Assembly (NCBI GenBank): GCA_963782525.1
Contig: CAWAKC010000004.1
Span: 1 to 64,000 of the forward strand
Length of the DNA stretch: 64,000 nucleotides
From: Candidatus Bathyarchaeota archaeon
Lineage (GTDB): Archaea > Thermoproteota > Bathyarchaeia > Bathyarchaeales > Bathycorpusculaceae
Direction of reading: 5' to 3'
Shown: in pieces, positions 1 to 39,227 of the stretch
How the letters are laid out: each line of letters begins with the position of its first letter
Numbering within the stretch: position 1 is the stretch's first letter
Notes under the pieces: generated by a model
Database searches by the model: none
Told to the model about the DNA's origin: nothing
The model's input: only the letters and a program-made list of their open reading frames with translations
Position numbers and translations under genes: made by a program

Positions 1-12
1 CGGGACTCGCAG

Positions 13-34
13 AGTTGTATAGGAGTAAGTACTG
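13..34 (+). repeat. Imperfect inverted copy of the motif beside the tRNA att site (candidate integrase arm site)
   Basis: AGTTGTA-N6-TAAGTACTG (13-34) versus CAGTACTTA-N6-TACAACT (39128-39149); 18/22 identical as inverted repeats. Confidence 0.55.
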
Positions 35-101
35 AATTTTTTTATCTTTTTAGTTTATTTTCATTGTTAGCGGATGCCCTAAGCTTTAGGAGGGCTATTT
101 T

Positions 102-629
102 TTGAGCACCATTTTTACTTACCTACGTCAGCCGCTTAATCGCTATACGTTCAAGGCGCCAAAAACTAAGGCATGGGTAGAAGATCAGTGCAAAGGCAAG
201 TATGTGCTGAACCTCTTTGCGGGTCCTACGCGGCTCAATGGCTGTATTGAAGTCGCCAACGACCTAGACGATTTGCCGTGTACTCTTTTTAGAATGGATG
301 CCCTGGACTGCGCCAAACATCTCAGGGAAAGAGGCGAGTTATTCGATGTTATTTTGCTAGACCCACCGTATAGTTACCGCAAAAGCATGGAGCTCTACAA
401 TGGGCATAAGAATAGTCGTTTCAAGCAGCTCCTCGATGTTCTGCCTGATATTTTGACGCCTCATGGCTGGGTTATCACTTTTGGGTATCATAGTCGCGTG
501 ATGGGTGTTAGCCGTGGCTTTAGGATTCGTGAAATCTGTCTGATCAGCCATGGCGGAGCTCAACACGATACTATCGCATCGGTTGAGGAGCGAATCCAAG
601 TAACGAAAGGAGAAATCAAAGATGAGTAA
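102..629 (+). CDS. Small amino (N6A/N4C) DNA methyltransferase
   Basis: Motif I-like LNLFAG and catalytic DPPY (VILLDPPYS). Confidence 0.8.
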   Translation: MSTIFTYLRQPLNRYTFKAPKTKAWVEDQCKGKYVLNLFAGPTRLNGCIEVANDLDDLPCTLFRMDALDCAKHLRERGELFDVILLDPPYSYRKSMELYNGHKNSRFKQLLDVLPDILTPHGWVITFGYHSRVMGVSRGFRIREICLISHGGAQHDTIASVEERIQVTKGEIKDE

Positions 630-1176
630 CAAAGTTAGTTTTGTTCTAAATCGCAATCCGCCCTATATGGATACGACCGTTCCTTATGAGCGGACTAAAG
701 CGGAAATTGAGATTCTGCTAAAAAGCTACGGGATAAAGAACATTCGCTGGACCACTCTTGAAGGCCAGGATGATACTTTAGAGTTCATCATTGAAGCACA
801 GGTGCAGGGTGTTAAGAAGCAATTAGGCGTCGCTGTTAAGCCTCCTCATATTGTTATTAAAAAGAAGCTTCATGGCAAACTCGTCGAGTCTGAGAACATT
901 AACCAGGAGTACCGGTTGCTGTTTCATTGGATAAAAAGCAAGATTGAGGCGGTCGTTTGGGGTCTTAGCACAATTGAGAAGGAATTTCTCAGCGAAGTTC
1001 TAATGAAGCTGCCCAATGGCCAGCAGTCAACAGTTGGCGACGTGGTCGTAAATTTGATGAGTAAAGATACGCTGCAGAGCTTGCCTTTCTACGGTTCCCG
1101 ACAGAGCGAAGTTCCGTGTCGAGTGATTGAGCCTGAAGTAATTTTACCCTCTAAAGGTAATCCGGGAGGTGCCTAG
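622..1176 (+). CDS. Viral hypothetical protein
   Basis: 184-aa ORF overlapping the previous stop; SD-like AAGGAG upstream. Confidence 0.65.
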   Translation: MSNKVSFVLNRNPPYMDTTVPYERTKAEIEILLKSYGIKNIRWTTLEGQDDTLEFIIEAQVQGVKKQLGVAVKPPHIVIKKKLHGKLVESENINQEYRLLFHWIKSKIEAVVWGLSTIEKEFLSEVLMKLPNGQQSTVGDVVVNLMSKDTLQSLPFYGSRQSEVPCRVIEPEVILPSKGNPGGA

Positions 1177-1178
1177 TT

Positions 1179-1487
1179 TTGGGCTATTTTCGTATGGGTC
1201 CTCGGAACATTCTTCAGCCTTTGCTTGAGCAGGCTGCCGTAGAGAAGCAGTCGCTTGGTGCTCCCACAAAAAAGACGTTGCTTGAAATTGCAGATAAGCT
1301 GGTTCAATGGGCACCTAACTTGTATAGCAGCTGCAGTAACCCAAGCTATTCTGACGAGGAGAAGACCGCTGCTAAGTCGTTGTTGAAAAAGTATGGCTTG
1401 GAGAAGCTTGGGAATTTGAGTCCCCGCTACAAGCAGGCTACTTTTGGGTTGATTGCTGCAGAAAAGGCAAAGGAGACTTGGCGCTAA
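1179..1487 (+). CDS. Viral hypothetical protein
   Basis: Tightly packed ORF; GGAGG upstream of the TTG start. Confidence 0.55.
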   Translation: MGYFRMGPRNILQPLLEQAAVEKQSLGAPTKKTLLEIADKLVQWAPNLYSSCSNPSYSDEEKTAAKSLLKKYGLEKLGNLSPRYKQATFGLIAAEKAKETWR

Positions 1488-1744
1488 TGGGTGAGACAGT
1501 TTTAGAACAGTTTGGGTTCAAACGCTTCTCGTATAGATCTCACCCTGAGGTTAAAAGCGTAGTTGAGACGCCACCTCCAGCTGACTGCTGTGAATTTGTC
1601 GGCGATCTAGTGTTTTCTGAGGGTGAAGGGCGTTATTGTTCTGACAAGACGTTTTGCCCTAAGCGTATTTTTGCAAATGCCAATGTCTATTCTAATTGTC
1701 CTACCCGGATAGAGAAGTTAAAAGCCCAAAAGGCTCAATCTTAG
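1478..1744 (+). CDS. Small Cys-rich viral protein
   Basis: Overlaps the upstream gene; several Cys (DCCEF, YC, FCP, NCP). Confidence 0.5.
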   Translation: MALMGETVLEQFGFKRFSYRSHPEVKSVVETPPPADCCEFVGDLVFSEGEGRYCSDKTFCPKRIFANANVYSNCPTRIEKLKAQKAQS

Positions 1745-2709
1745 GAGCTGTTTTTTTGGTTGAAGCATCTGATAACACCGCCAACACCCCTACCAACAGG
1801 TGTTGCAACAGTTGGCACCCCTCAAAGCCCAGAGGCATAGAAGCACTAACATATCAGATTATCGATGCTTCAGAAATTGAGCTAAAACCATGTGAAATAG
1901 CCCGAAAAATCCATGCTCCACGCAAGCCAACACCAGGTCAATATTCCACCGTTCGCTTTTTCTGCTCCAAATTGCTGCAAAAAGGCATGATCATTCAGCC
2001 CTACCCTGGAAGTTACTGTAACAAAATCACCTACGGGGTGCGGTTCGTGCCGCTCTCAGTGCATAACATTAGCTTGCGCAGTTTCGTCTGCCAAGATGTC
2101 AAGCATTGGGAGAAGGATGAGTTTGTCGGGGGAGTAAAGATTCATGTTTGTTTTGGGTCTGAGCGCCGCAAAATCAGCGGATACCTCGCCTGTGACGTCG
2201 GCGGCATGAGCCATGACGCATGTCTTTTGGCACTTAACCGTTGGTTTGACCTAGTCAACGACCATTTAGGCTTCCAACTAAATGATTTAGAGATCTTAAC
2301 TTTTGAGTGCAACAAAGACTACCATGGCATTCGCCTGGATGGTGTTCAATGCATAACCAAAATCAATCTCTATGGTATGGTTGAGCGGGTGTATCAAAAA
2401 GAGGAAGCCCTTGTTCGCAAGGAACGCAAGATCACAAAGCCCATGAGCGTAAACAGGTTTGAACAAGCTATATCCAAAGGTTTTGCTGATACCGAAAGAT
2501 CTCAGCATGCCTTTGAGCTTAGAGAAGAGGTCAAACGTAACACTGAGGCGTTAAAGTACGCTAACAGTAGGCTTTTGCAGCTTGAGCGTTTAAACGAGGC
2601 TATGTTTGGAGCTCTCACCAAGCTCAATGATGTTTTGGGTAAGCTTGGCGATTTTGGCAGCCCTGTGCCTCTTGGGAAAGGGCAGGATTCTGAGGATTAT
2701 GTTCGTTGA
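1696..2709 (+). CDS. Viral protein with N-terminal wHTH-like segment and C-terminal coiled coil; candidate replication initiator (true start probably TTG ~1756)
   Basis: ELKPCEIARKI...CSKLLQKGMII is wHTH-like; the only large early-region ORF. Function is inference. Confidence 0.5.
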   Translation: MSYPDREVKSPKGSILGAVFLVEASDNTANTPTNRCCNSWHPSKPRGIEALTYQIIDASEIELKPCEIARKIHAPRKPTPGQYSTVRFFCSKLLQKGMIIQPYPGSYCNKITYGVRFVPLSVHNISLRSFVCQDVKHWEKDEFVGGVKIHVCFGSERRKISGYLACDVGGMSHDACLLALNRWFDLVNDHLGFQLNDLEILTFECNKDYHGIRLDGVQCITKINLYGMVERVYQKEEALVRKERKITKPMSVNRFEQAISKGFADTERSQHAFELREEVKRNTEALKYANSRLLQLERLNEAMFGALTKLNDVLGKLGDFGSPVPLGKGQDSEDYVR

Positions 2710-2808
2710 TAGTTATGGAGTTGATTGTTTGGGAAGTCATGAGAAAAAAAGAGCAAAAAAAAGACAGAAACAACTAAAGTTGGAACTGAAGAAATTGGGG
2801 GTTCACCC

Positions 2809-3375
2809 ATGAGTGAAAAGAAAACGGTCCTAAAAGTTCCCGATGCTTACAAGGGGCTTTTGGAAGATATCCGTCTGCTAAAATCTGACGAAACTAACCC
2901 CAATAAAATGACTAACAAGCAAAAAGACCAGGTATGGAAAAGCCTGCAAAGACACGGCTGGATCTACCCCATAGTCACCGATTTGAAAGGCGTCTTTAGT
3001 GACGGCGAGCAGCGCGTCCAAGTTTGCAAAGATCACAACGAGTTTTTTGCGCCGGTACTTAGGCTCGCCCTCTCAGATCCTCAGAGGAGACTGCTAAGGC
3101 AGACCCTAAACAAACTTAGAGGCAAGCACAACCGAGAGCTTGATGAAGCCGACTACAAGCGCATAATTGAGGCTGGCGAAAAAGAAGATTTACAGGCGCT
3201 GTTGACGGCGATTGGCGAGAAAATTCCTGAAGATCTAGGCGGACCTCGTGAGGGCTCTATGTTGATTCCTGAAAGCTACGAGCTGGTTATTGAGTGCAAG
3301 GATGAGACTGATCAGAAAGCCAAGTTTGACCAATTAACCGCGGCAGGGTATGTTGTGAGGGTGTTGAATCTCTAG
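2809..3375 (+). CDS. ParB/Srx-like N-terminal domain protein
   Basis: NPNKM...KSLQRHGWIYPIV...SDGEQR pattern of phage ParB-like proteins. Confidence 0.75.
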   Translation: MSEKKTVLKVPDAYKGLLEDIRLLKSDETNPNKMTNKQKDQVWKSLQRHGWIYPIVTDLKGVFSDGEQRVQVCKDHNEFFAPVLRLALSDPQRRLLRQTLNKLRGKHNRELDEADYKRIIEAGEKEDLQALLTAIGEKIPEDLGGPREGSMLIPESYELVIECKDETDQKAKFDQLTAAGYVVRVLNL

Positions 3376-4058
3376 TGGACTTTGACTTCTATAACACCTG
3401 GACTGAGCCTGACAGTTTCCGAGCTCAAAGCGTTATAGGAAGCTTCACCTTAAACGATGTTAAGCTGCAGAAGCACTTCAAAGGCTCCCTGCCCATAGAA
3501 GATGATGATTGGCAAATAGGCATAATAGTTGGTCGCAGCGGATCGGGCAAGAGCAGCATCGCAAAAAAACTGTTTCATAATGAGTATATTACAGGTTTTG
3601 AGTACCAGGGCAAATGTATCCTCGATGACTTTCCCCAAGAGCTCAGCACCTCAGAGATTACCCGTATGCTCTGCAGTGTCGGTTTTGCTTCTCCCCCAGA
3701 TTGGCTAAAGGCATATAGTTGTCTTAGCCAAGGCGAGAAGATGCGAGTTGACGTTGCAAGGGCACTTTGCCTGCCTCAGAAACGCATAGTCTTCGACGAA
3801 TTTACCAGCGTTGTTGACCGAGAAGTTGCCAAAATCGGTTCTTATGCCATCAGCAAAGCTGTCCGAGCGCAAACAGGAAAGCAGTTCATAGCTGTTACCT
3901 GCCACTTTGACGTCATAGACTGGCTTGAAGTCGATTGGGTCTTCAACACTGACACGATGGAGTTTTTTAAAAAAAAAGAACCCACCCAACAATTGAGCTC
4001 CAAGTGCAGCGGTGCAACAACGCTATGTGGAAGAGTTTTCGGCAATATCACTATTTGA
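3375..4058 (+). CDS. ABC-type ATPase (N-terminal half of an ABC-GNAT fusion)
   Basis: Walker A GRSGSGKS, signature LSQGE, Walker B IVFDEF, H-loop TCH; no membrane partner. Confidence 0.85.
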   Translation: MDFDFYNTWTEPDSFRAQSVIGSFTLNDVKLQKHFKGSLPIEDDDWQIGIIVGRSGSGKSSIAKKLFHNEYITGFEYQGKCILDDFPQELSTSEITRMLCSVGFASPPDWLKAYSCLSQGEKMRVDVARALCLPQKRIVFDEFTSVVDREVAKIGSYAISKAVRAQTGKQFIAVTCHFDVIDWLEVDWVFNTDTMEFFKKKEPTQQLSSKCSGATTLCGRVFGNITI

Positions 4059-4459
4059 ATGGGAAACTTGGCGCCGGAGTACGATGTTACGTTGCCGTCT
4101 ATAACGAGAAACCTGTGGGTTTTGTTGCGATTGTCCATACAAGGATGAAGGCCAATTACTTCCGTGTTAGTCGTCTTGTGGTTTTGCCAGATTACCAAGG
4201 CATAGGCTTAGGTAAACGGTTACTCAACTTCATCGCACAGCTCTACACTTCCCAAATCAACCTACCATTCTATCTAGTTACTTCGAATCCTCAGCTTGTC
4301 CGAGGCAACTTGGGCAACTGGCGCGTGAAGCGTGTTGGGCATGGCACAGCTGGAAACGAAGACACAAGAATCAACTCAGAACTCACCAAGAGCAACAGCA
4401 AACGACGCCTAAGCGTAACCCTACAGTACATACCCAAGCGGAAATCGGGGAGTTTATAG
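3971..4459 (+). CDS. GNAT acetyltransferase, in the -1 frame of the ABC ATPase
   Basis: WKSFRQYHYL and SRLVVLPDYQGIGLG (acetyl-CoA motif A); the frame opens right after TAA 3968-3970 inside the T6A9 run. Confidence 0.82.
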   Translation, partial: KKRTHPTIELQVQRCNNAMWKSFRQYHYLNGKLGAGVRCYVAVYNEKPVGFVAIVHTRMKANYFRVSRLVVLPDYQGIGLGKRLLNFIAQLYTSQINLPFYLVTSNPQLVRGNLGNWRVKRVGHGTAGNEDTRINSELTKSNSKRRLSVTLQYIPKRKSGSL

Positions 4460-4590
4460 TGCAAAAATACTGCAAAGGCAAATGCGGACGCAAGCTCTCA
4501 CACCAAAACAAAACAGGCTATTGCAAAGAATGCTTCGGTCGCTTCATCCTTAGCCCTAAGGGTGCTAATGCAAGTAAGCGAGATCATTAA
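4459..4590 (+). CDS. Small zinc-finger protein (43 aa, not in ORF track)
   Basis: GTG overlapping the GNAT stop; MQKYCKGKCG...GYCKEC. Confidence 0.5.
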   Translation: MQKYCKGKCGRKLSHQNKTGYCKECFGRFILSPKGANASKRDH

Positions 4591-4686
4591 TCATCGGCAA
4601 GTGCGTCGCGGAAAAATAGGTTTGGCATTTAGCGCTAACGTTTTCTATTCGCGCAACATTTTTTTACTTAAATAGCCAAATTTAAT

Positions 4687-5040
4687 TTGGAAATTTGTAT
4701 GTCGAATTCTGATGCGATAATGGTTGAAGTGATCGATAGGGTATTATCGTCTTTGGCTGAGAAAGAACGCTTTTACAGTGAGCTAAAAAAGATGCAAATT
4801 CAGCCCCAAGATATCCCAAACAACCTTTATGCCTTTCACCATGTCTTAAAGAGTACGTTTGGAAAAGGTCATTACTCAATTGAAAGTTCAATTATCAAGA
4901 CGCTCCATGAAAACACAAAGAAGGGTATCTACAGTGAAAAGGATGCTGCGCCAGTCGCCATTCGCCTTCTTGATGTATTTACAAAGGAGCACCAAAAGGA
5001 AATAGAAGAATCAAAAAAAGAATTAAATAAAAAAGCTTAA
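4687..5040 (+). CDS. Hypothetical helical protein beside the kinase cargo
   Basis: 117-aa ORF in AT-rich DNA with its own upstream TTAAATA box. Confidence 0.55.
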   Translation: MEICMSNSDAIMVEVIDRVLSSLAEKERFYSELKKMQIQPQDIPNNLYAFHHVLKSTFGKGHYSIESSIIKTLHENTKKGIYSEKDAAPVAIRLLDVFTKEHQKEIEESKKELNKKA

Positions 5041-5176
5041 CCCAATAGGTGCAAGCTCCGATATCTTTTCTGCTTATTTTTCCATTAAATTATCTGCTCA
5101 GTTTAGGTTCTATTCAGGGAAGTTTAAATATTAATTAGAAAAGAGGTTATTAGAGCAAATACTAGATGGGTAACTT

Positions 5177-8100
5177 ATGGCGAGCAAAACGAAAACTGCT
5201 TTCGATGAATCGACTTCGCTTGAAGGCAAAGGTAAAGCGTATGAGTTTCCGATCGTTGGAATCGGCGCTTCTGCAGGCGGATTAGACCCCATCAGGAAAC
5301 TGCTAGAGAATTTACCCATCGACACGGGCATGGCGTTTGTTGTGATCCAGCATCTGGCTGCTGGACAAGAGAGCATGCTGCCCGAAATCCTCTCAAGATC
5401 TACCAAGATGAAGGTTCTGCAAGCCCTAGATGACTTGAAGGTTGAAAAGAACCATGTTTACGTCATTACCCCGGGCAAGACCATGACGTTGAAAAATGGT
5501 TACCTCAAGCTTGTTCCTAAAGGTGTATCTATCAAACCCATCAACGATTTCTTTGTTTCCTTAGCTTCAGAGCGAAAAACCCAAGCAATCGGAATCGTGC
5601 TATCGGGAACAGGCAATGATGGAACCGACGGCCTCAAAGCAATTAGAGCCGAAGGCGGAATTACCTTCGCTCAAGACCCAGAGACAGCTCAATACCCAGA
5701 CATGCCTCGAAACGCAATAGATGCTGAAAATCCAGACTTTATTCTTTCACCAGAACAGATGGCAAAAGAGTTAGCTATAGTCTCTAAGCACCCTCAGCTA
5801 ATTCGTCCTGAAACAAAAACTGCAAAGCAAGAAATAGACGAAACAGACTTTAGAAAAATCATAAAGGCGCTCAAAAAATCCTTCGGGGTTGATTTCACCC
5901 ATTACCGAGATACAACCATAAACCGCCGCATTACTCGTCGCATGGTCATAAATAAGACCGAAAACATGGAAGCGTACTTGGCGTATTTGCAGGCGCATCC
6001 AAGTGAGCTTCAGGCATTGTTTGATGACCTGCTAATAGGTGTGACAAGCTTTTTTAGAGAACCAGATACTTTCTTGGCTTTGAAAGAGAAGGTTTTTCCA
6101 GAAGTTATCCAGAAAAAGGCTCCCAATGAATTCATACGAGTTTGGGTTCCTGGCTGTTCCACAGGCGAAGACGTCTATTCCGTAGCCATAGTAATTCAGG
6201 AATTTATAGAAGAAAAAGCCCTAACAGATATCCGGATTCAAATTTTTGGCACTGATGCAAACGTAAAAAATGTTGAGAAAGCTCGTCAAGGAACATACCC
6301 AAAAACCATAGCTGAGCATATATCCGAAAACAGGCTAAAACGATTCTTCACCGCTTATAATGGGCATTATCGAATAACAAAAAGCATACGTGACGTATGC
6401 ATATTTGCAAAACAGGACATAACAAGTGATCCGCCTTTCTCTAACTTGGATGTCATTATGTGCAGAAATGTGCTCATCTATTTTGACTCGTACCTTCACG
6501 AGAGAATACTGCCCATTTTCCATTACGGGTTAAAGCCGAGTGGTTTTCTTGTTTTGGGCGAGTCCGAAAGTGTAGGCAAGTTCCAGTACCTGTTTGAGCC
6601 CATTACTCCAAGAGGCCTAATTTACAGAAAGAAGCAAGCTCAGCCGCAATCGATGGTATTTCAAGAAGCCTTTATTCCTTCTGCTACAAGGGATTCTGCT
6701 AAACCGCAAAGAAAAGCAGATTTGCTAACTGTTTTAGGAGAGAAGGTAGACCGCCTGATAACTACAGAGTATGGTCCAGCGACTCTGTTAGTAAACAACA
6801 ACTTGGACATACTGGTTTTTCGTGGGGATGTCGCACCTTATCTTTCACCAGAATCAGGAGCGGCAAGCCTTAATGTAACAAAGATTCTTCGAAAAGAGTT
6901 AAGGTCTCAAGTTCAAACTGCATTATACAGAGCAAAGAAAGAAAATAAAGTCTTCAAAGAAAATGTGAACTTAAAGCAAAAAGGGCAAGCAAAAACTGTT
7001 ACTTTCGAGATAAGACCACTGGAAATAGCAGATTACGACGAACCATTCTACCTGGTATTATTTACTGAAACGCCGTCACATGCACATATATATCAAGAAA
7101 ACGAATCGGCGATTTCATCTGATGGAATTAAGGAGCTTAAAGATCGCCAGATTAGTGAGCTTAGGGAGGATTTGGAGGCAACTAAGCGGTCATTGCAGGC
7201 ACTTGTTGAGGGGCAGGAGGCAACTAATGAGGAGCTGCGGTCGTCTATGGAAGAGGTTCAGTCGAGCAATGAAGAGTTGCAGAGCACAAATGAAGAGCTT
7301 GAAACGGCGAAGGAAGAGTTGCAGTCAAGCAATGAGGAGTTGCAGACTTTAAATGAGGAGCTTAAGAACCGTAATCAGACTCTTGGTCGCCTAAATGATG
7401 ACTTAGCAAATCTGCAAACGAACATTGACATCGCAGTGGTTATCGTTGATAGTGGCCTGAAGATTAGGCGGTTCACTGCTTCAGCCCAAGAACTTTTGAG
7501 AATTTCGCCATCCGATGTTGGGGGCTCCATAGCCAACATAACTCCCGGGGTTCATATTGAAAGCTTGGAAAAAACGATAACGGAGGTAATCGATAAGTTA
7601 ACTCCTGTTAGTAAAGAAGTTGAGGGTTTGGAAGATCGTTGCTATGAAATGCGGGTTCGACCCTACTTAACTGAAGAAAAGAAAATTGACGGTGCATTTC
7701 TATCTTTCACAGATATTACCAAACGCAAAAAAGCTGAAGAGGCACTTGATAAATATGCTAAGAACTTGGAGAAGCTTGTTGAAGAACGAACCAGTCAACT
7801 CAAAGACTCCGAGCGTTTAGCAGCTATAGGCGCAACTGCAGGTATGGTTGGACATGACATTCGCAATCCCTTGCAAGCAATTGCCAGTGATGCATATTTG
7901 GCTAAGACTGACTTAGCTTTGATGCCTGAAGGCGAAGCAAAAGAGGGCATGAAAGAAAGTTTAGCAGGCATTGAGAAGAATGTTGAGTACATTAACAAGA
8001 TTGTCCAAGACCTACAGGATTTTGTAAAGCCACTCAAGCCGACTGTTCAGGAAACAGATGTTGAAGCGCTCTGCCAAGACGTGCTGCTTAATAATGGTCT

Positions 8101-8491
8101 TCCAAAAAACATTGATGCCTCATGCATAGTCGAGAAAGAAGCGAAAAAGGCGATTGCTGACCCAGCTATGTTGAAGCGAATTTTGAGTAATCTGGTAAGT
8201 AATGCGGTTCAAGCTATGCCGCAGGGTGGAAAACTTGATATTCATGCGGTCAAGGAAGGTGGCGATATTGTCATAACTGTTCAGGACACAGGTGTTGGTA
8301 TCCCACAAGAAATTAGACCAAAACTATTCACTCCGCTTTTCACTACTAAATCGAAGGGTCAAGGCTTTGGCTTAGCAGTGGTCAAGCGCATGACTGAGGC
8401 ATTAGGCGGCAAAATAACGTTCGAGAGCGAAACAGGCAAAGGCACAAAATTCATTTTGCGTTTTCCCCCCCCCCAAAGAGCTAAGCGGTAA
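5177..8491 (+). CDS. CheB methylesterase-CheR methyltransferase-PAS-histidine kinase fusion
   Basis: CheB GASAGG/QHL/GNDG; CheR PGCSTGE and CRNVLIYF; EELQSxNEEL heptads; H-box GHDIRNPL; N, G1 and G2 boxes. Confidence 0.93.
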   Translation: MASKTKTAFDESTSLEGKGKAYEFPIVGIGASAGGLDPIRKLLENLPIDTGMAFVVIQHLAAGQESMLPEILSRSTKMKVLQALDDLKVEKNHVYVITPGKTMTLKNGYLKLVPKGVSIKPINDFFVSLASERKTQAIGIVLSGTGNDGTDGLKAIRAEGGITFAQDPETAQYPDMPRNAIDAENPDFILSPEQMAKELAIVSKHPQLIRPETKTAKQEIDETDFRKIIKALKKSFGVDFTHYRDTTINRRITRRMVINKTENMEAYLAYLQAHPSELQALFDDLLIGVTSFFREPDTFLALKEKVFPEVIQKKAPNEFIRVWVPGCSTGEDVYSVAIVIQEFIEEKALTDIRIQIFGTDANVKNVEKARQGTYPKTIAEHISENRLKRFFTAYNGHYRITKSIRDVCIFAKQDITSDPPFSNLDVIMCRNVLIYFDSYLHERILPIFHYGLKPSGFLVLGESESVGKFQYLFEPITPRGLIYRKKQAQPQSMVFQEAFIPSATRDSAKPQRKADLLTVLGEKVDRLITTEYGPATLLVNNNLDILVFRGDVAPYLSPESGAASLNVTKILRKELRSQVQTALYRAKKENKVFKENVNLKQKGQAKTVTFEIRPLEIADYDEPFYLVLFTETPSHAHIYQENESAISSDGIKELKDRQISELREDLEATKRSLQALVEGQEATNEELRSSMEEVQSSNEELQSTNEELETAKEELQSSNEELQTLNEELKNRNQTLGRLNDDLANLQTNIDIAVVIVDSGLKIRRFTASAQELLRISPSDVGGSIANITPGVHIESLEKTITEVIDKLTPVSKEVEGLEDRCYEMRVRPYLTEEKKIDGAFLSFTDITKRKKAEEALDKYAKNLEKLVEERTSQLKDSERLAAIGATAGMVGHDIRNPLQAIASDAYLAKTDLALMPEGEAKEGMKESLAGIEKNVEYINKIVQDLQDFVKPLKPTVQETDVEALCQDVLLNNGLPKNIDASCIVEKEAKKAIADPAMLKRILSNLVSNAVQAMPQGGKLDIHAVKEGGDIVITVQDTGVGIPQEIRPKLFTPLFTTKSKGQGFGLAVVKRMTEALGGKITFESETGKGTKFILRFPPPQRAKR

Positions 8492-8715
8492 ATGGATTTA
8501 CAAAAGATATTAGCGTCTTTTTCTCATAATTATCAAGGGATTAACATAATTCTTACTTATCCTTGCGAAAAATTCTTTGAAATCAATTTGCTCGATTATT
8601 CTTGCGTGCAATTGCTTAAAAGCGAGCGCTTATTAGTGTAATTTATTGGGTTAACCTCTTGCAAGTATGCGTTTAGTTTTCCTCGCCTCCTTAGCTGGAG
8701 CGTGAACGGTTTGCA

Positions 8716-9280: not shown

Positions 9281-9298
9281 TTTAGGAGAGAGGATTGT

Positions 9299-9478
9299 TT
9301 GGAGCCTGAAGAGTTTATAGGAGAAATAAAGAGGACCTTTAGCCGAGCCGCTATGTTGCCTGATTGGATGCAGCAGATTCTCTTAGAGGACATAAACGCC
9401 GCTATAGAAAATCGCATCCGCACGATGGAACTCATCATTCAAGCTAAATCTAAGGCTGCAGAGACCTTGGAACCCTGA
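9299..9478 (+). CDS. Small helical protein (59 aa, not in ORF track)
   Basis: TTG start after GGAGAGAGGA; MEPEEF...MLPDWMQQILLEDINAAIENRIRTME. Confidence 0.5.
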   Translation: MEPEEFIGEIKRTFSRAAMLPDWMQQILLEDINAAIENRIRTMELIIQAKSKAAETLEP

Positions 9479-32240: not shown

Positions 32241-35020
32241 CTGATACAACTGACCGCCTAATTATCTGTAGCCCGTATGAGATGCCCCAGAAGCACTTGA
32301 GCTATAATCGGGAGATTAGGAAGTTTGAGCTTGTTGAGGGACGCAGAAGAGCAGGATATATTGTGGCCACTGAGGATTCCAGGGCATTCGATGACCCAGG
32401 GCATTTCATTCCCCTAGAAGAGGTTAACAAAATCCGTGAAAGAGTAGACAAGTGGCGGGATGCAAGCTATCCTGGCATAACAACAGTAACCAAAGAACTA
32501 CTTGAGCACTGGATTAACCCTGAGCGGGAACCACGCTTGTTTTTCTGCCAAATCGAAGCTATAGAAACGCTCATATGGTTACTTGAAGCACCTGAAAAAG
32601 AGCGGCAGGGTATTGCAATCAAGGGCGATGGTAGCGCTTTTCAGCGTGTCTGCTCTAAAATGGCTACTGGCAGTGGAAAAACTATTGTTATGGCGATGCT
32701 GATTGCATGGCAAGCTATCAACAAAGTGACTTATCCAAAAGATGGCAGATTCTCAAAAAACTTTCTGGTCGTTTCACCTGGATTAACAGTGAAAAACCGA
32801 CTTCAAGTGCTCTATTCTACAAATGAACAAGATTACTATCACGCGTTTGATATCGTCCCATCAGATATGTTCGATAAGCTGAGGCAAGCTAACATTAAAG
32901 TCATAAATTGGCATATGCTCTCATGGGAATCCCAAGAACAACTAGCACGGAAACACACAGTTGATAAACGCGGTGTGAAAAGCGATGAAGCCTATACACG
33001 CGAAGTCCTCGGAGAAATGGCAAACGCCAAAAACCTCATAGTAATAAACGATGAAGCACACCATGCATGGCGAGAAAACCCAGAAGCAATCGGCAAGTAT
33101 CAAAGAGAACGTGATTTGAAAGATAGCGCGGAAGAAGCAACCGTTTGGATAGGTGGATTAGATAGAATTAACAAAACTCGGGGCATTCTACGATGCCACG
33201 ACTTTTCAGCCACACCATTTTATCCATCAGGCAAAAAAGCCTCAGAGGAAAACCTGTTTAGTTGGATAGTTAGCGATTTTGGCTTAAACGACGCAATAGA
33301 ATCAGGCTTGGTGAAAACTCCTTGCGTTGTAATTCGGGACGATGGCCGGCTAACTAAGCAGATGAAATCAAGGTTCTATCATATCTACGCTGACCCCGAT
33401 GTTAAAGGCGACATCAATCGACAAGCTGAAGAGAATGAACCCTTGCCTGACCTAATCAATACAGCATACATGCATTTGGGTAAGCATTGGGCAGAAACTC
33501 TCGATCTTTGGAAGAAGAACAAGGTTGAGACGCCACCCGTAATGATAACCGTTTGCAACAGGACGGAAACCGCTGCCAGAGTAGAGTACGCCTTTAACCA
33601 CAAAAAAATAAAGGTTGAAGGATTAAATGACTCCACAAAAACATTGAGAATTGACTCTAAAATTATGGCAGAAGCCGAAAGCAAAGAAGAAGCGGCTGAA
33701 AAAGAGGCTGAACATGAGAAGAAGCAAACCCAAAGCGACAGGGCTGATTTTCTGCGCGAACAGGTAAATACAGTGGGCGTTGTAGGCAAACCAGGTGAGC
33801 AAATTCAAAATGTCATTTCAGTGGGAATGTTGACTGAGGGTTGGGATGCCAAAACCGTTACTCATATCATGGGTTTGAGGGCTTTTACTAGCCAGTTGCT
33901 ATGTGAACAGGTGGTTGGCAGAGGATTAAGAAGAACATCATACGATGTAGACCCAGAAACTGGGCTTTACGCTCCAGAGTACGTTAACATCTTTGGCATA
34001 CCCTTCACGTTTCTGCCCCATGAAGGCGGCGAAGATACACCTCCACCGCCACCAAAACCAAGGACGCGAATCTACCCAGACCCAGACAAGAAACAATACG
34101 AAATTACATGGCCAAATATCGTTAGAATCAACCATACCTACACACCAAAACTAACCCTCGATGTTTCAAAGGTAAAACGCATTGAACTGCGACCGGAAGA
34201 AACTCCGCTTAGCTCAGATTTGGCAGCGATGATTGAAGGCAAACCCAACGCTAAATTCCTTACAGAAATCAACTTGGCAGATAAAACGGTCGAAAACTAT
34301 TTACAGGCTGTAAGAAGGCAGCGGTTGATTTTTGAGATTTCAAAGGAAATATACGACCAGATGATGCCGAATTGGCAGGGTAGCAAAGAATACTTGCTTA
34401 TTCAACTGGTTAAGATGGTTGAGGACTTCATCGATTCCAACAAAGTATTCATCTATAGTTTAGCCTACCGTGAAGACGACTTGCGAAGAAGGCTCCTCAT
34501 ACTTCTAAACATGAACAAAATAGTTCACCACATCTTTACTGCGATTAAATTTAAAAATACACAGCAGACTGCGCCGATTTTCAACAAAGAGCAAGCCATC
34601 AAATCAACCGAGAATATGATGACTTGGTTTACAACTCGTCCCTGTGAACATACTAAAAGAAGCCATATCAGTCAAATCGTAGTAGACAGCACTTGGGAAA
34701 TGACTGAAGCCTTTGAGTTGGATCGGAACCCAGATGTTGTGGCTTGGGCAAAAAATGACCATCTTGGCTTTACTATTAGCTACATCTTCCGAGGAGTCAT
34801 CCACAAGTACTACCCTGACTTTCTCATCAAACTATCAAACGGCAAAACCCTAATATTGGAAGTCAAAGGCAGAGATGATCAACAAAACAAAACCAAACGC
34901 GAATACCTCAACGAATGGGTCGAAGCTGTCAATGCAGACGGTAGATTCGGTAAATGGGCATGGGATGTTTCCTTTAGAACTTCAGATATTAAAGACAAAA
35001 TAAAGAAACACTCGGGCTAA
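32237..35020 (+). CDS. res: Type III-like restriction subunit (SF2 helicase + PD-(D/E)xK nuclease)
   Basis: [35 protein letters not shown]...LEVKG; overlaps the mod stop (ATGA). Confidence 0.9.
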
Positions 35021-35029: not shown

Positions 35030-35896
35030 ATGAGCGTTGAAAACCTGTTACCCTCGTTCAGCGATTTAGGAAACATATCCTTAATAGTGTTGGCCGCGGT
35101 GGCAGCTCTTTTCTATTTTGGAAAGTTATCTTCAAGCGTTAAGATCGAACAATACGAGAAAGATGACTATTATATTGAAGGTTTTTTCTTTGCTTTCTTT
35201 TATGTAGGCATTCCGTTTATCTTAGTGTTGGGGCTATCAGAGCTATTTACCCAGCACTTTCCAGGCTTCACATGGCAAACAAACAACATCCTTCTGGTCA
35301 TAGCAATTCTGACCGAGGCAATAATCACATATCTCTTAGCTGCTACAATTACATTTAACCACTCAAGGTTTACTCTGTTTTCTCAACTGAAGGAAGCCTA
35401 TACGAAGGCATATAACAAAGAAAAAGCGAAGAAATCACTACTCATAGCATCAGCCGAAAAGGCAACAGCAAAACTAAACATAAACCTCTCTGAAGACTCC
35501 CTGAACGCTCAAAGTAGTCTGGCGGATACAGTCTGCCGACCGATAACAATTTTCTTGACGTCACTAATTCTGGTATTAGTTGCTTATGCTACTTTTATTT
35601 CGCCCCCACCTATCGTTGTTTTTAGTTCTACTGAAATCTCAATAGTTCTTTATGTTCTAACGTTTGTAAATCTAACTTTTTTAGCACTCGCTTTTGGCTA
35701 TATCAATGTCTACCATCCTCCAGCAACCATTCACTTGGATGATGGAACAAAAATTGAGGGAAAACTAGTCAAAATAGGCAAATTCCTGTACATAGTAAGT
35801 GAAAAAGATCATCATAAGATTTTCATAAACTCAGAAAAGGTTGTTCGAGTAGAAGAGGACATGTTCAAAGTAGAAAGCGATGAAAAGGCGGAATGA
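35030..35896 (+). CDS. Multi-TM protein with C-terminal Sm/LSm-like beta domain
   Basis: About 5 hydrophobic segments; ATIHLDDGTKIEGKLV...KIFINSEKVVRVE. Confidence 0.6.
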   Translation: MSVENLLPSFSDLGNISLIVLAAVAALFYFGKLSSSVKIEQYEKDDYYIEGFFFAFFYVGIPFILVLGLSELFTQHFPGFTWQTNNILLVIAILTEAIITYLLAATITFNHSRFTLFSQLKEAYTKAYNKEKAKKSLLIASAEKATAKLNINLSEDSLNAQSSLADTVCRPITIFLTSLILVLVAYATFISPPPIVVFSSTEISIVLYVLTFVNLTFLALAFGYINVYHPPATIHLDDGTKIEGKLVKIGKFLYIVSEKDHHKIFINSEKVVRVEEDMFKVESDEKAE

Positions 35897-35905
35897 TATT
35901 GCATG

Positions 35906-36205
35906 CTATTCTTCTGGTTCAACCTCTAAATGGACCGTAATGCGCTCTATGTCCTTTTCAGTCATCAAATCCTCTTGCGTTCGGTTGTCAACTATGCCGT
36001 CGGCTATGCTCTGGACGATATAACTGCAAATAAAACATAATGGAATATTTACTAAAGTATGGTCTTTATCTTTGTTGAAAGGCAACGTGACAAGCTCATC
36101 TTCGGTTACGCCGGTGGCCCACGCACCCTTAGCCTTTAGTCTGATGAGTTCTTCTGCAACTTCTTTTTTGGTTCTTTTGCACATCCAACATCTCTTCTCA
36201 TTCAA
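35906..36205 (-). CDS. Small C4 zinc-finger protein
   Basis: RCWMCKR...LCFIC, ClpX-type-like spacing. Confidence 0.55.
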   Translation of the reverse strand: MNEKRCWMCKRTKKEVAEELIRLKAKGAWATGVTEDELVTLPFNKDKDHTLVNIPLCFICSYIVQSIADGIVDNRTQEDLMTEKDIERITVHLEVEPEE

Positions 36206-36211: not shown

Positions 36212-36640
36212 TCACCGATTAATGCCAGATTTTCTTTCTCGTTTAAACTCGTCGTATTTGTAGAGTACTTCACTTATCTGGCTGCGGATAAATTGCTCTG
36301 GTGAGCGGTAAGTTGTTCCCATTTCTTTTAGGGCTTCTTCTAGCTCATCGTATTGTTCGCGTGAGACCTCTACATACTCGTTGTCGTTTTTGAGTCTCTC
36401 GAGTCTTACTCTTATGGCGTCTCGTACGAAGTCCTCTTTGTTGACAAAGCCCCTGTCTTTGTTTTCTTCGATGAAGTTTTGCACTTTGGCGATGACTTCT
36501 GGGGGTAGTATAACTGATTGTTCCATTAGTGCGTTTAGGGCGTCTTGGTAGGTTTGCATTTTGTTGGTTTCTGCTGTGAGTTCGCCTAGTAGTCCGGTTA
36601 GTTTGCTGTGGATGTCGTCGGAGATTTTTATGGCTTTCAT
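36212..36640 (-). CDS. Multi-RHH transcription regulator (repressor candidate)
   Basis: Three ribbon-helix-helix-like units: MKAIKISDDIH, SVILPPEV...KEDFVRDAIR, YVEVSREQY...EQFIR. Confidence 0.7.
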   Translation of the reverse strand: MKAIKISDDIHSKLTGLLGELTAETNKMQTYQDALNALMEQSVILPPEVIAKVQNFIEENKDRGFVNKEDFVRDAIRVRLERLKNDNEYVEVSREQYDELEEALKEMGTTYRSPEQFIRSQISEVLYKYDEFKRERKSGINR

Positions 36641-36735: not shown

Positions 36736-36963
36736 ATGTGTAAGATGAAAGCAAAAGTCGGATTCACCATCGATCAAGAGGTCTTAAAGGAAATAGACGC
36801 CCTAAGAGACCTAGCTACACGTAGCGCCTTCGCCAACGAAATCCTCAAACAAGGACTCAGAGCATACAAGTCAACCCACAAGAAACCTAAAGCGCCTTAC
36901 CCAGCTATAACCATTGATACCGCTGAGGAAACAGCGTTAGCGATGCCGAGGGACAAGCAATGA
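36736..36963 (+). CDS. RHH/CopG-like regulator
   Basis: KVGFTIDQEVLKEID...TRSAFANEIL. Confidence 0.72.
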   Translation: MCKMKAKVGFTIDQEVLKEIDALRDLATRSAFANEILKQGLRAYKSTHKKPKAPYPAITIDTAEETALAMPRDKQ

Positions 36964-37199
36964 TGCAACCCCATAGGATTTGCCCTTTAGCCGCAGCCCA
37001 CCCTCGACAAGAAAACAGCGATTGCCTGGGCGAAGCGTGCGCATGCCACGTAAAGATGCAAAAGCCCCGCTTAATGCAAACAGGCAACACCAGCATTGTT
37101 GATCTAGAGAGTTTCTATCGCTATGTCGGATGCGGACTGGTGGCACATATTCCCTGGGAACTTGTCAACTTCGAAAAGATTCCAGAATCAAACAAGTAA
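36960..37199 (+). CDS. Small Cys-rich protein
   Basis: RICPL...CLGEACAC...GCGLV; ATGA overlap with the upstream gene. Confidence 0.55.
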   Translation: MMQPHRICPLAAAHPRQENSDCLGEACACHVKMQKPRLMQTGNTSIVDLESFYRYVGCGLVAHIPWELVNFEKIPESNK

Positions 37200-37219
37200 C
37201 CTAACAATAAAATGAAGAG

Positions 37220-37663
37220 GTGTGGGAGGGAATGGCTATTCTCGCTACAAATTCTAAGAAGAGCACCAATGAAGCCAGTGTAAGTTTTGGCGAGTCGGCT
37301 ACTGTAAATGCCGCTGGCAATGGCTCCCAAATCCTAAAAGCCGTTTATATCCGCTACAGAGACCACGTGTTTTTCAGAAACGTCCAGACACCAGCAGCTC
37401 AAGCAATCATACGGGAAACAATAGGCTGGATTAAAGAAGAAAACGATGAAGTTATGCTTATCGAATGCGATAGACCTCTCCCCGAGTGCCACAGCGGCTT
37501 TAACGGCGTGGTTGTAATCAAAAGCTGCATTGTCGCCATGGTATCTCTCAATTTTGAGCATGTTTTAAATTGTCCAGCCACTTTACTAAAGAATCGAGTA
37601 TGCGCTCCTAGCCAAAGAAGCGAAAAACTCACCCCTAAAAACAAACGGAAGGGGCGAAATTGA
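37220..37663 (+). CDS. Hypothetical protein upstream of the integrase (start probably ATG 37232)
   Basis: GGGAGG SD; stop overlaps the integrase start. Confidence 0.55.
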   Translation: MWEGMAILATNSKKSTNEASVSFGESATVNAAGNGSQILKAVYIRYRDHVFFRNVQTPAAQAIIRETIGWIKEENDEVMLIECDRPLPECHSGFNGVVVIKSCIVAMVSLNFEHVLNCPATLLKNRVCAPSQRSEKLTPKNKRKGRN

Positions 37664-39117
37664 TAGAGAGAAAGACGCAAAATACAGCAATCGCAATAGA
37701 GCGAAAACGTAACCTCACCGTTGATGACTTAAAAAAACTCAATCTGCCACTACAATTCCAAGGTCAACTCGTCATTATCGAAAAAAGCCTCAACAACATC
37801 CGCCTGCAAAATCCCATTAGCTTAGAGCTCAGCAAAATCTTAGCGACTGGAGAAATAGGACTCGCAGACTACATCATACGCAGCTGCCTCAACAAGTACC
37901 CAAACATGATCCCCTACATCTTTGAACATCAAAGCATGGTCAAGATGTCCCGACACTTTCTACGTCACTGCAGCGGCTCCCATGAGAGCTGTCCTGGATA
38001 TGCACTCCGATTCAAAAAATACGCCGACTGGCTCGGATACAGCCCTGACTTAATAATCCAAGACGTCAAACCCGTAGGCGCAATCCCCGACCCCCTAAAA
38101 GTGCAAAACCACTGCGGATTCTTAAGCGACTACCTAGCAGCCCTCCAAGATAGCGACCTAAAGCCCGGCGCAGTCTGCAACTACATCAAAGCAGTCAAAA
38201 CCTTCTACCGCACCAACGGAGTAAAAAAGATTGAACTAGACGAACCGTTGAGCCGAAATATATCTCACAAAGACAGAGCACCCAAACCCGAAGAACTAAC
38301 CGTAATGCTAGACAAAGCCGCTATACGCGAAAGTTTTGTTATCGCAGGCATAGCAACAGGAGGCTTTAGAGAAGGCACCTTTGCCAAACTAAAATACCGC
38401 CACGTCAAAGAAGACTTAGAAGCAAACCGCATACCGATCCACATCCACGTTGAAGCAGACATAACCAAGGGCAAATACCACGACTACGACACATTTCTAA
38501 ACGCTGAAGCCTGTCACCTCTTAAAACTCTACATCGACCAAAGAAAACAGGGCACCCGAGGAGTGTCACCGGAAGAAATTACTGACGAATCACCGCTGAT
38601 CAGAAACAGCCGTGTTGCGAACAGAGTCTTAGGAGTCACCGAAAAAACCATCCGCCAAATCGTGCATGACTCCGCTGTCGAAGCAAAGGTCGCTAAAAAA
38701 CTACCTAACAGCTGGATGTATAGCGTAAGAACACACAGCCTCAGAAAATTCTTCAGAACCCAATTAAGCGCATCGAAGATCGACGACGAAATCATCAAGT
38801 ACATGATGGGAAAAACCATCGACACATACGAAGACGTGCAGAGTTTAGGCATTGAAACCCTTAGAAATCTATACGCTGCTGCAGGCTTAGCAATCAGACC
38901 CAAAACTAAAGTCAACCGGATTGATCAACTCAAAGAAATCATACGCGCCTGGGGAGAAAACCCTGAACAAATACTTTCAAAGGATGTCTTGTTGCGCGGC
39001 AACCAAACCGTTTACTGCGCGGGCGCACAAAGTGATGAGCAGATCAATAGTCATCAGCTATCTGTTCTTGCAACGGAGCTTAAACAGATTATACGCAAAG
39101 AGGTTACAGAAAAATGA
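37660..39117 (+). CDS. int: Tyrosine recombinase/integrase
   Basis: Catalytic R (GGFREG), K (TKGK), HSLRKFF, MMGK and Y (DTY); SAM-like N-domain; adjacent to a tRNA. Confidence 0.92.
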   Translation: MIERKTQNTAIAIERKRNLTVDDLKKLNLPLQFQGQLVIIEKSLNNIRLQNPISLELSKILATGEIGLADYIIRSCLNKYPNMIPYIFEHQSMVKMSRHFLRHCSGSHESCPGYALRFKKYADWLGYSPDLIIQDVKPVGAIPDPLKVQNHCGFLSDYLAALQDSDLKPGAVCNYIKAVKTFYRTNGVKKIELDEPLSRNISHKDRAPKPEELTVMLDKAAIRESFVIAGIATGGFREGTFAKLKYRHVKEDLEANRIPIHIHVEADITKGKYHDYDTFLNAEACHLLKLYIDQRKQGTRGVSPEEITDESPLIRNSRVANRVLGVTEKTIRQIVHDSAVEAKVAKKLPNSWMYSVRTHSLRKFFRTQLSASKIDDEIIKYMMGKTIDTYEDVQSLGIETLRNLYAAAGLAIRPKTKVNRIDQLKEIIRAWGENPEQILSKDVLLRGNQTVYCAGAQSDEQINSHQLSVLATELKQIIRKEVTEK

Positions 39118-39152
39118 CCATCAAAAACAGTACTTATTACGTTACAACTAGG

Positions 39153-39227
39153 CGGGTCCGACGGGAATTGAACCCGCGACCCTCGGATTAAGAGTCCGAT
39201 GCTCTAGCCTGACTGAGCTACGGACCC
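39153..39227 (-). tRNA. tRNA-Lys (anticodon CTT), intronless, CCA not encoded
   Basis: GGGTCCG/CGGACCC acceptor stem, TAGCTCAG D arm, TCGGA-CTCTTAA-TCCGA anticodon arm, GGTTCAATTCCC T arm. Confidence 0.96.

Follow-up and report, generated by a model that had tools for sequence, protein, structure and literature searches.

A tailed provirus of a Bathyarchaeota archaeon, probably complete, delimited by attachment sites at a tRNA-Lys(CTT) gene

The stretch of DNA analysed here (the window, 64,000 nucleotides, nt) is the start of contig C4 (C4:1-64000) of genome G000, a Bathyarchaeota assembly of 12 contigs and 2.87 Mb (completeness 95.8%, contamination 2.7%). A provirus integrated at a tRNA-Lys(CTT) gene lies in its first 39 kb, and the open reading frames (ORFs) of 1-39227 were scanned against Pfam (44 ORFs) and PHROGs (30 ORFs). 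The early genes appear to lie in the first 4.5 kb, with the operon for packaging, head and tail at 9.8-25.9 kb; cargo would fill 26-36 kb together with inserts at 5.2-8.5 kb and 16.0-17.1 kb, and a putative divergent lysogeny switch is placed at 36.2-37.0 kb. With a probability of roughly 0.85, window 6-39150 (∼39.15 kb) is the complete integrated genome of a temperate Caudoviricetes virus with an HK97-fold capsid and a non-contractile tail, the host of which is a Bathyarchaeota archaeon. The features at the two ends of the element, including its attachment (att) sites, are as follows.

1-34, plus strand: left attachment site; the contig start truncates the 16-bp core to its final 5 nt (1-5), and the left arm follows (6-34)
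36212-36640 (minus strand, 142 amino acid residues, aa) and 36736-36963 (plus strand, 75 aa): putative lysogeny switch, two ORFs divergent across 95 bp
37220-37663, plus strand: 147-aa ORF that always precedes integrases of the family found here; no Pfam or PHROG match
37660-39117, plus strand: integrase, a divergent, tyrosine-recombinase-like protein of 485 aa (weak PF00589 and phrog_216 matches; names of cluster members)
39118-39227, minus strand: right arm (39118-39150), right att core GGCGGGTCCGACGGGA (39151-39166) and tRNA-Lys(CTT) (39151-39227)

At the right boundary, the integrase gene stops 33 nt short of the 3′ end of tRNA-Lys(CTT), the one tRNA gene that ARAGORN and Rfam found in the window (the Rfam scan gave nothing else), and beyond the tRNA the genes are ordinary cellular ones (DUF362, GDPD, TrmO, CutA and a trp operon). 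The att core is the 16-nt 3′ end of this tRNA. The first five letters of the window, CGGGA, are those that end the core, and base 1 is at the same time the contig start, so the provirus is complete in extent; a sequence-only reading had called it near-complete, which was right as to the presence of the provirus genome but understated its extent. The element ends at base ∼5, and not in viral genes that continue far upstream of base 1. No second copy of the tRNA was found within the window (12-nt seeds; 27-28-mers with up to three mismatches); the left copy is cut by the contig start. The left core is thus represented by 5 nt only in the assembly, the right core is complete, and a full host-side copy is located at C8:85958-85973. 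The 12-nt end of tRNA-Lys occurs four times in G000, two of these copies belong to the tRNA-Lys genes and the others lie at C1:3651 and C8:85958. The left arm (∼29 nt) repeats, in inverted orientation, the right arm that separates the integrase stop from the tRNA, with a local score of 36 versus 19.8 ± 3.8 for shuffled sequences, a score that was reached by 1 of 2000 shuffles. Runs of T7 and T5 directly follow the left arm (window 37-51).

In metagenome contigs, 551 relatives of the integrase were found. Eighty loci carrying such relatives were fetched, and the downstream sequence was examined in 71 of them, since the contig ended inside the integrase gene in the other nine. On metagenome contig L069 the order is integrase, spacer, full 16-nt core, and then the homologue of window 1-115, 589-1432 and 1708-2429. 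This junction represents the viral attachment site (attP) arrangement of a related virus, in which the genes of the window start follow the integrase across the core. The earlier proposal that circularisation would join the integrase end to the window-start genes is borne out by this contig, and integrase and window-start genes are both on the plus strand, as had been stated. A single early transcription unit across attP, which had also been proposed, is weakened by the T7 and T5 runs, as these would be expected to stop archaeal transcription. In another metagenome-assembled genome (MAG), a provirus that is 90-94% identical over window 4-19998 (G323:C33) lies on a contig ending at the same left point, with 2 nt of the core left. 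The left-end 35-mer had no exact match in IMG/VR.

The integrase belongs to a cluster whose members were named site-specific integrase or XerD by their sources; they are mostly 480 aa long versus 485 aa here, and candidate R, H-x-x-R and Y residues were picked by eye in the translation. Homologues of the 147-aa ORF were observed upstream of the integrase on contigs C1 and C8, in genome G012 and in 12 of 12 tabulated metagenome loci. ARAGORN called a tRNA in 23 of the 71 metagenome loci (Asn 12, Lys 5, Arg 4, Pro 1 and Ile 1). Two arrangements of this integrase family were found: the integrase faces either an intact tRNA gene or a ∼16-nt piece of a tRNA 3′ end in sense orientation, beyond which the flanks vary (as in L034, L036-L039 and L074). 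The 142-aa gene of the putative switch adjoins tRNA-Lys or the integrase in relatives (G010, G012 and L027-L030).

Unoccupied versions of the site were also compared. In genomes G016 and G014, the tRNA-Lys/DUF362 pair is present with no provirus gene within 20 kb; in G016 it stands beside genes syntenic with G000 C8:68.8-82.5 kb, and in G010 tRNA-Lys is 17 kb from genes matching C8:84.2-86.0 kb. In G000 itself, the 16-nt tRNA fragment at C8:85958-85973 has the same orientation and is next to the host flank. What look like scars of past integrations at this site were seen in G010 (L014 630-1160) and at G322:C15:158460-159134: no integrase is present after tRNA-Lys, only the final ∼60 nt of an integrase gene (G010) and/or a homologue of the 142-aa switch ORF.

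Temperate phages and islands of the P4/lambda type enter the 3′ ends of tRNA genes via tyrosine integrases, a scheme reportedly laid out by Williams in 2002. The present element resembles it in a core identical to the tRNA 3′ end, in a viral core copy that restores the tRNA gene and in an integrase gene beside the att site, and a direct repeat would mark the far end; it differs in the archaeal host, in an integrase match below the Pfam cut-off and in the occurrence of the core in both orientations relative to the integrase gene. By analogy, the divergent, tyrosine-recombinase-like integrase at the right end would recombine viral attP with host tRNA-Lys(CTT). The attP would consist of a 16-bp core, identical to the tRNA-Lys(CTT) 3′ end, flanked by the imperfect inverted arms; the viral core copy would now complete the tRNA at 39151-39166, and the displaced host copy would mark the far side. 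The anatomy of this classical 3′-end scheme is present in the assembly, and the chemistry would be expected to follow it.

The host-side copy of the core introduces a second element. At C8:85958-90516 (L022 7442-12000), the 16-nt tRNA-Lys 3′ fragment beside the host flank is followed by an inverted integrase and the conserved upstream ORF; this integrase shares 71% aa identity with that of the window and reads towards the repeat, and contig C8 ends 4.5 kb further on. The inverted integrase inside the repeat, taken together with the two arrangements in the metagenome loci, leads to the reading that the C8 integrase module and the provirus are probably two tandem elements at one locus. The order would be host flank, core, second element, core, provirus and tRNA, and the assembly would have broken at the middle core, which is window base 1. 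Alternatively, the end of C8 and C4:1-39150 could belong to a single composite of more than 44 kb, its attP flanked by two convergent integrases, and base 1 would then be no end at all. The direct succession of repeat and inverted, 71%-identical integrase on C8 fits such a composite, as does the lack of any contig with the junction between the C8 and C4 parts. It is nevertheless quite unlikely, because the window opens with the end of the core and the left arm, an arm that in L069 directly follows the core after a single integrase, and because integrases with the opposite core polarity stand alone by varied flanks in many metagenome contigs (for example L034, L036-L039 and L074).

Between the early genes and the cargo, the provirus carries the genes for packaging, head and tail, all on the plus strand.

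8716-9033 and 9023-9280, plus strand: small ORFs before the terminase, the latter weakly holin-like
9512-9772, plus strand: winged-helix ORF (HTH_45, 1e-9)
9786-10289, plus strand: putative small terminase, by position only; no Pfam or PHROG match
10286-11596, plus strand: large terminase subunit, TerL (Terminase_6N, 5e-10; phrog_2, 3.6e-30)
11734-13114, plus strand: portal protein gene, with homologues that carry PF04860; split by a frameshift
13032-14917, plus strand: head assembly genes (114-aa Cys/His-rich, 349-aa and 152-aa proteins); no family matches
14919-15872, plus strand: major capsid protein of 317 aa, HK97 fold (AlphaFold2 and Foldseek)
17127-17465, plus strand: adaptor-like connector
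17472-17930, plus strand: Neck1/tail-completion protein (phrog_5, 3.9e-16)
17923-18339, plus strand: tail terminator (weak)
18389-18781 and 18791-19264, plus strand: putative tail tube and chaperone, both by position
19376-25857, plus strand: tail region with tape measure, two small distal-tail ORFs, 554-aa LamG protein, tail fibre, and 274-aa and 105-aa ORFs
19376-20737, plus strand: tape measure of 453 aa (TMP_3, 1.8e-5, below cut-off; phrog_167, 1.7e-8)
21717-23381, plus strand: LamG-domain tail protein of 554 aa (Laminin_G_3, 5e-16)
23627-24712, plus strand: tail fibre of 361 aa (tail-fibre PHROGs down to 6.5e-19)

The AlphaFold model of the capsid protein (45 sequences) reached a mean predicted local distance difference test score (pLDDT) of 86.2 and a predicted template-modelling score (pTM) of 0.83. 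According to Foldseek, it matched HFTV1, HK97 and many phage capsids at a probability of 1.0, with HFTV1 as the top match (E 3e-13), and 181 homologues were found among cluster representatives. Like HFTV1 (8qpq/8qsy), an archaeal siphovirus with a non-contractile tail, the provirus has an HK97-fold capsid model (TM 0.59-0.65); unlike it, HFTV1 has a halophilic host, and the identity of the capsid sequences is only 9-11%. The gene at 16041-17075, a candidate for the capsid gene by its position, was ruled out, as its 139 homologues are helical, also bacterial and devoid of capsid traits. Homologues of the portal protein (46-60% identity) carry PF04860, and one of them is named phage portal protein of Candidatus Bathyarchaeota archaeon. 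The head assembly genes at 13032-14917 are syntenic and 42-55% identical in IMG/VR contig L107. The 349-aa protein (13408-14457) stands at the protease/scaffold position and has a C-terminal coiled coil, with no family match, and is a putative protease/scaffold; the 152-aa protein is a putative decoration protein. Further matches in the connector and tail-tube region (17127-19264) were to phrog_4204 (3e-3) and HK97-gp10_like (8.6e-4), and the ORF at 9023-9280 matched Phage_holin_3_3 (2.3e-5, under the Pfam cut-off).

No match to a tail sheath was found in the 44 ORFs scanned with Pfam or the 30 scanned with PHROGs, and no sheath-sized ORF lies between the tail terminator and the tape measure; a tape measure with no sheath-sized ORF fits a non-contractile tail, although missing matches do not prove that a sheath gene is absent. 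The same scans gave no match to a DNA polymerase or a lysin, and the helicase-type domain was found in two proteins only, TerL and the Res subunit of the restriction-modification system described below. The sequence-only reading had noted that DNA polymerase, helicase, sheath and recognisable endolysin are missing, which agrees with the scans for polymerase, sheath and lysin and is qualified for helicase by these two domains. Its identification of a tailed provirus at tRNA-Lys is supported by the hallmark head and tail genes and by the integrase abutting tRNA-Lys(CTT). The morphogenesis operon, which it took to be full, is represented by TerL, portal, capsid, Neck1, tape measure and tail fibre, but the portal gene is frameshifted. 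With an HK97-fold capsid, a TerL and a portal protein (frameshifted in this copy), the provirus belongs to the Caudoviricetes and works like a temperate siphovirus of the lambda/P4-type tRNA-integrating kind; no named family was assigned to it. As a side observation, the 274-aa ORF at the end of the tail module (24705-25529) has paralogues in the host genome at C3:89105-89932 (51%), on C9 (49%) and on C1 (36%), and may be a shared cell-surface-binding domain.

The host is a Bathyarchaeota archaeon. The 90% cluster of the integrase includes an NCBI protein named Candidatus Bathyarchaeota, and capsid genes 97-99% identical to that of the provirus occur in MAGs titled Candidatus Bathyarchaeota, in agreement with the Bathyarchaeia host that had been suggested from the letters alone; one such gene is in a record titled uncultured Alphaproteobacteria. 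The latter title more likely reflects a binning or labelling problem than a bacterial host. On the 233-kb contig of an Alphaproteobacteria-titled MAG lies the 90-94% identical provirus mentioned above (L115; CAWGSB010000033.1, G323:C33). Genes 90-99% identical to those of the provirus occur in other Bathyarchaeota MAGs and in many metagenomes, and the 90% clusters comprise 105 members for the capsid, 97 for the portal and 61 for TerL. Capsid homologues were detected in 38 of 301 genomes sampled from the class, representing 15 of 107 genera, with a best identity of 57% outside G000. The closest IMG/VR relatives reached 66% and 62% for TerL and 61% for the capsid. Among GenBank phage records, 115 matched TerL, all below 60% identity, with 27.5% as the highest among the 15 listed, and the capsid protein had no match there; a close match to an already classified virus was thus not observed. 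Genome G321 has the same early and head genes beside tRNA-Asn, and the tail fibres and cargo of the provirus were not found in the three close genomes searched.

The remaining genes of the provirus, early genes and cargo, are listed below.

102-629, plus strand: small methyltransferase-like ORF (Cons_hypoth95, 3.5e-4, below the Pfam cut-off)
622-1176, 1179-1487 and 1478-1744, plus strand: early ORFs with no Pfam family matches
1696-2709, plus strand: conserved early protein with a winged-helix DNA-binding domain, a beta-rich domain and a long helix
2809-4459, plus strand: early module of a 188-aa protein like a methyltransferase N-terminus, an ABC-type ATPase (3375-4058) and a GNAT acetyltransferase (4004-4459)
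5177-8491, plus strand: sensor kinase of 1104 aa (CheB methylesterase, CheR methyltransferase, PAS, HisKA, HATPase)
16041-17075, plus strand: accessory gene for a helical 344-aa protein, between capsid and connector genes
26391-29573, minus strand: 1060-aa cargo protein, G+C content (GC) 0.38-0.39
29735-35020, plus strand: type III restriction-modification (R-M) system; Mod at 29735-31099 and 31149-32240 (split by a frameshift), Res at 32237-35020
35030-36205: 288-aa multi-pass membrane protein (plus strand) and 99-aa CxxC protein (minus strand), features read from the translations; no significant matches

The early genes of the left 4.5 kb share 92-98% aa identity with an element on contig C3 (92-95% for the module at 2809-4459) and 77-93% with L069. 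In L069, the methyltransferase-like ORF is missing (window 116-588), ORFs 622-1176 and 1179-1487 are 93% and 78% identical, and window 1433-1707 is skipped in relatives. The conserved protein at 1696-2709 has 208 homologues, all unnamed or hypothetical; since its relatives are 317 aa long, the true start is probably ∼20 codons downstream. Its AlphaFold2 model (mean pLDDT 62) is confident only for residues ∼46-116, a segment matching winged-helix domains at Z 8-10; no sequence match was found in the PDB, and a language-model search returned proteins of its own kind only (0.76). In the early module, the 188-aa protein resembles the N-terminal part of a methyltransferase model (PADLOC MTase_II, 1.3e-11; mad3, 3e-11), and Pfam supports the ATPase (ABC_tran, 2.6e-8) and the acetyltransferase (GNAT, 1.5e-10), for which the IMG/VR contig L107 shows 72% and 62% aa identity, respectively.

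No polymerase, primase or replicative helicase was recognised among the provirus ORFs by Pfam or PHROGs, and replication is therefore presumably carried out by the host machinery. This absence, the large share of cargo and the several related copies per genome would also suit a domesticated, particle-forming island of the gene-transfer-agent kind, or an integrative plasmid with captured head and tail genes. An element of that sort is very improbable given an integrase, att sites and a terminase of its own within a full-size genome of 39 kb; the attP-type junction in a metagenome, the relatives among IMG/VR viral contigs and the mosaic end modules, typical of temperate viruses, point the same way.

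Two frameshifts bear on the state of the provirus. The portal gene is split into ORFs of 93 and 369 aa by one extra base near 12011. Its paralogue on contig C3 is an intact ORF of 460 aa, and the extra base is missing in five of five related copies (four from three other genomes, plus C3), one of them 97.7% identical over the compared 221 nt; in the 97-member 90% cluster, among the 14 other members listed, ten are 459-460 aa and four are 427-465 aa long. The other frameshift is located in Mod near 31056-31062, just before a conserved stretch (DPTCGSGTT), which reads in the frame of the second Mod ORF directly after a stop. These were the only defects seen, and the att sites are intact; lengths equal to those of cluster mates were observed for TerL (436 aa), the capsid protein (317 aa), the 554-aa and 361-aa tail proteins and the kinase. 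The two 1-nt frameshifts imply that the provirus was either recently inactivated or mis-called at those two bases.

If both insertions are real, the element would be a cryptic, defective provirus that produces no virions and either is retained for its cargo or has simply had no time to decay, for which the chances fall only just short of even. The portal relatives that uniformly lack the extra base, one of them 97.7% identical, agree with this, as does a second, independent frameshift in Mod. Indels are not rampant in the window, since the four host genes checked there (GDPD, TrpD, TrpB and the kinase) are as long as other members of their clusters, and decayed related remnants are found elsewhere in G000 (C1:47.3-57.3 kb and C3:383-386 kb). 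A defective state is less easily reconciled with the full length of all other structural genes checked, and an assembly of few contigs would fit long-read data, of which single-base indels are the typical error. The latter would make both frameshifts base-calling or assembly errors in a fully functional, inducible provirus, a possible state that we rate somewhat below even chances. The rest of the morphogenesis operon, the att sites and the integrase are indeed intact, and contigs of two MAGs break at the att core, as would be expected if integrated forms coexist with excised or tandem ones. Such errors, however, would have struck twice independently in 39 kb, and no counterpart was noticed in the window's 25 kb of host DNA.

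Several observations weigh against the reading of window 6-39150 as a complete temperate virus. With portal and Mod frameshifted, this copy may be unable to form virions. The PF00589 match of the integrase (E 5.5e-5, 23.5 bits) is under the cut-off of 27.1, the phrog_216 match being at 8.7e-6. With 5 nt of left core and the DNA before base 1 unassembled, the exact left junction is one that we infer; likewise, as no contig spans the C8-C4 junction, the tandem order is a reconstruction. Family support is lacking for the protease/scaffold, the small terminase and the tail tube, and also for the switch. The divergent 142-aa and 75-aa ORFs may form a lysogeny switch, and the pair that the earlier reading called a regulatory switch is present, but support is weak, with sub-threshold matches only (RHH_1, E 0.034; phrog_38461, 3e-5); a ribbon-helix-helix (RHH) fold for the two was not confirmed, the best E being 0.034. 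None of the indexed sequencing runs contained more than 15% of the sampled provirus words, and no RNA run was listed as containing them. A naive exact-repeat scan of G000 for arrays of clustered regularly interspaced short palindromic repeats (CRISPR) found no array, only a coding tandem repeat. A scan for sigma-70 promoters and terminators, a method ill-suited to archaea, gave sites no commoner than in shuffled sequences.

Genome G000 contains at least three more related elements. The contig start C1:1-3670 (L023) carries a third integrase, 91% identical at the nt level to that of C8, which is followed by the 12-nt tRNA-Lys end, the same 7-nt flank as on C8 and thereafter unrelated sequence. 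The element at C3:451717-463547 (L019) is collinear with window 1146-4584, 8525-9815 and 11567-13311 (77-91% nt identity); its early genes and portal are ∼90% identical to those of the window at the nt level, with an intact portal and a different terminase. Its left boundary is a 16-nt stretch identical to the tRNA-Asn(GTT) 3′ end; elsewhere this stretch occurs only in the tRNA-Asn gene with which contig C2 terminates. At C6:1-37445 (L020 and L021), a tail module with 30-80% aa identity to that of the window begins at the contig start, and ∼30 kb further on an XerA-like recombinase of 426 aa abuts tRNA-Pro(GGG), 3′-end copies of which lie at the very start of C7 (C7:4-19) and inside C10 (C10:215890). 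Apparent decayed remnants of related elements occur as short fragments in two regions, C1:47.3-57.3 kb and C3:383.4-386.5 kb; they match parts of the provirus at 84-100% identity, among them GNAT, the genes at 8.5-9.0 kb and the C-terminal end of the capsid gene. Contig ends were observed at att cores in tRNA 3′ ends at C4:1, at the end of C2, at the start of C7 and at the end of G323:C33, and prophage junctions thus seem to be systematic break points in these MAG assemblies.

Among the cargo genes, the sensor kinase has Pfam matches of 6.6e-52, 6e-50, 8e-22 and 3e-29, and the GC of its region dips to 0.42. The slot that it occupies (4585-8524) is variable: the C3 element has a NosD-like gene there instead, and L107 is without the kinase. 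In contigs of relatives from three soil and wetland runs (X1-X3), depth was low at the kinase, with one strand-switching junction near 4588/8503. A copy 95.6% identical was found in a groundwater run (X5) on a 12-kb contig with flanks unlike those of the provirus, and within the host genome the kinase's closest paralogue reaches 55% identity; only C3:305-310 kb also matches the CheB/CheR part. Together, the variable slot, the low depth and junction in relatives, the groundwater copy and the 55% host paralogue point to a recent capture of the kinase from a cellular genome. The captured gene could be kept and expressed from the prophage, where it would rewire host signalling by lysogenic conversion or else feed into the choice between lysis and lysogeny; although unlikely, such a use is compatible with the full-length gene, the slot with other inserts in related elements and the 95.6% copy outside proviruses. 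If true, the provirus would represent the first archaeal virus to use a sensor kinase of the chemotaxis methylesterase/methyltransferase type; a literature search on archaeal viruses or proviruses and histidine kinases returned no title about such a gene. The C-terminal part of the kinase gave many tblastn matches in the host genome (24-73% identity), which indicates an archaeon rich in such sensors.

The gene of the helical 344-aa protein (GC 0.41) is absent from relatives of runs X1-X3 (depth 0-0.55). Its 139 homologues in archaea and bacteria have no Pfam domain, and no match was found in the PDB or with PADLOC; a role in defence is a guess. The family occurs in records of Bathyarchaeia, Woesearchaeota, Dojkabacteria and Treponema, and its alignment shows invariant H304, G307, G308, R319, N323 and E327 in the C-terminal third. 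The low-GC cargo block (26.4-35.9 kb) comprises the 1060-aa protein, the type III R-M system and the membrane protein. The 1060-aa protein had no match in Pfam, PHROGs, PADLOC or the PDB, and its nearest neighbours in a language-model search were unnamed bacterial clusters of ∼1100 aa (score 0.96), to be taken as a lead only. The R-M system was identified by PADLOC (MTase_III, 1.7e-98 at model positions 75-490 and 3e-32 at 653-982; REase_III, 1e-9) and Pfam (N6_N4_Mtase and ResIII), with Mod and Res adjacent, and its genes are without 90% relatives in the protein collection (clusters of one member each).

Tailed viruses of these archaea had been taken in the sequence-only reading to be sparsely described and the element to be a possible new lineage; this is not supported, as tailed proviruses and families of Bathyarchaeia are in print and near-identical genes are common in public data. 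The available text of PMC11705971 describes eight tailed Bathyarchaeia proviruses, including BATPV1 and BATPV2, that were delimited by integrase, tRNA and direct repeats and carry R-M genes, parts of DISARM, a prokaryotic Argonaute (pAgo) and accessory genes. Compared by these descriptions, the present provirus is like them in being head-tailed, in coming from a Bathyarchaeia MAG, in its integrase/tRNA/repeat boundaries and in its cargo of defence and accessory genes, and is unlike them, as they are described there, in its type III R-M system and CheB/CheR kinase. Two Caudoviricetes families of Bathyarchaeia, ‘Kunpengviridae’ and ‘Fuxiviridae’, are proposed in the part of PMC10848311 consulted, and the provirus shares with them the host group and, with Kunpengvirus, the possession of an integrase. 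By description, Kunpengvirus has a family B DNA polymerase, an MCM-like helicase, a deoxynucleoside monophosphate (dNMP) kinase and Cas4, none of which was found in the provirus, and the gene content given for the two families in PMC10848311, which includes type IV-B CRISPR-Cas, was likewise not found in it. An archaeal catalogue of 770 proviruses is reported in the accessible part of PMC13573593.

Bathyarchaeia are abundant, uncultured archaea of sediment and soil for which few viruses with defined ends are available. The provirus provides a fully delimited genome of a temperate virus, with base-exact att sites and an attP structure, and is useful as an annotated reference. Current views are not overturned by it; a caution is added that such archaeal MAG contigs tend to break at att cores. 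Its cargo comprises a recently captured host sensor kinase and a type III R-M system. The locus illustrates that one genome can hold several related elements, probably in tandem at a single tRNA gene, and that tRNA genes for Lys, Asn, Arg and Pro are all targets of one integrase family (over 550 relatives in metagenomes), with the core in either polarity.

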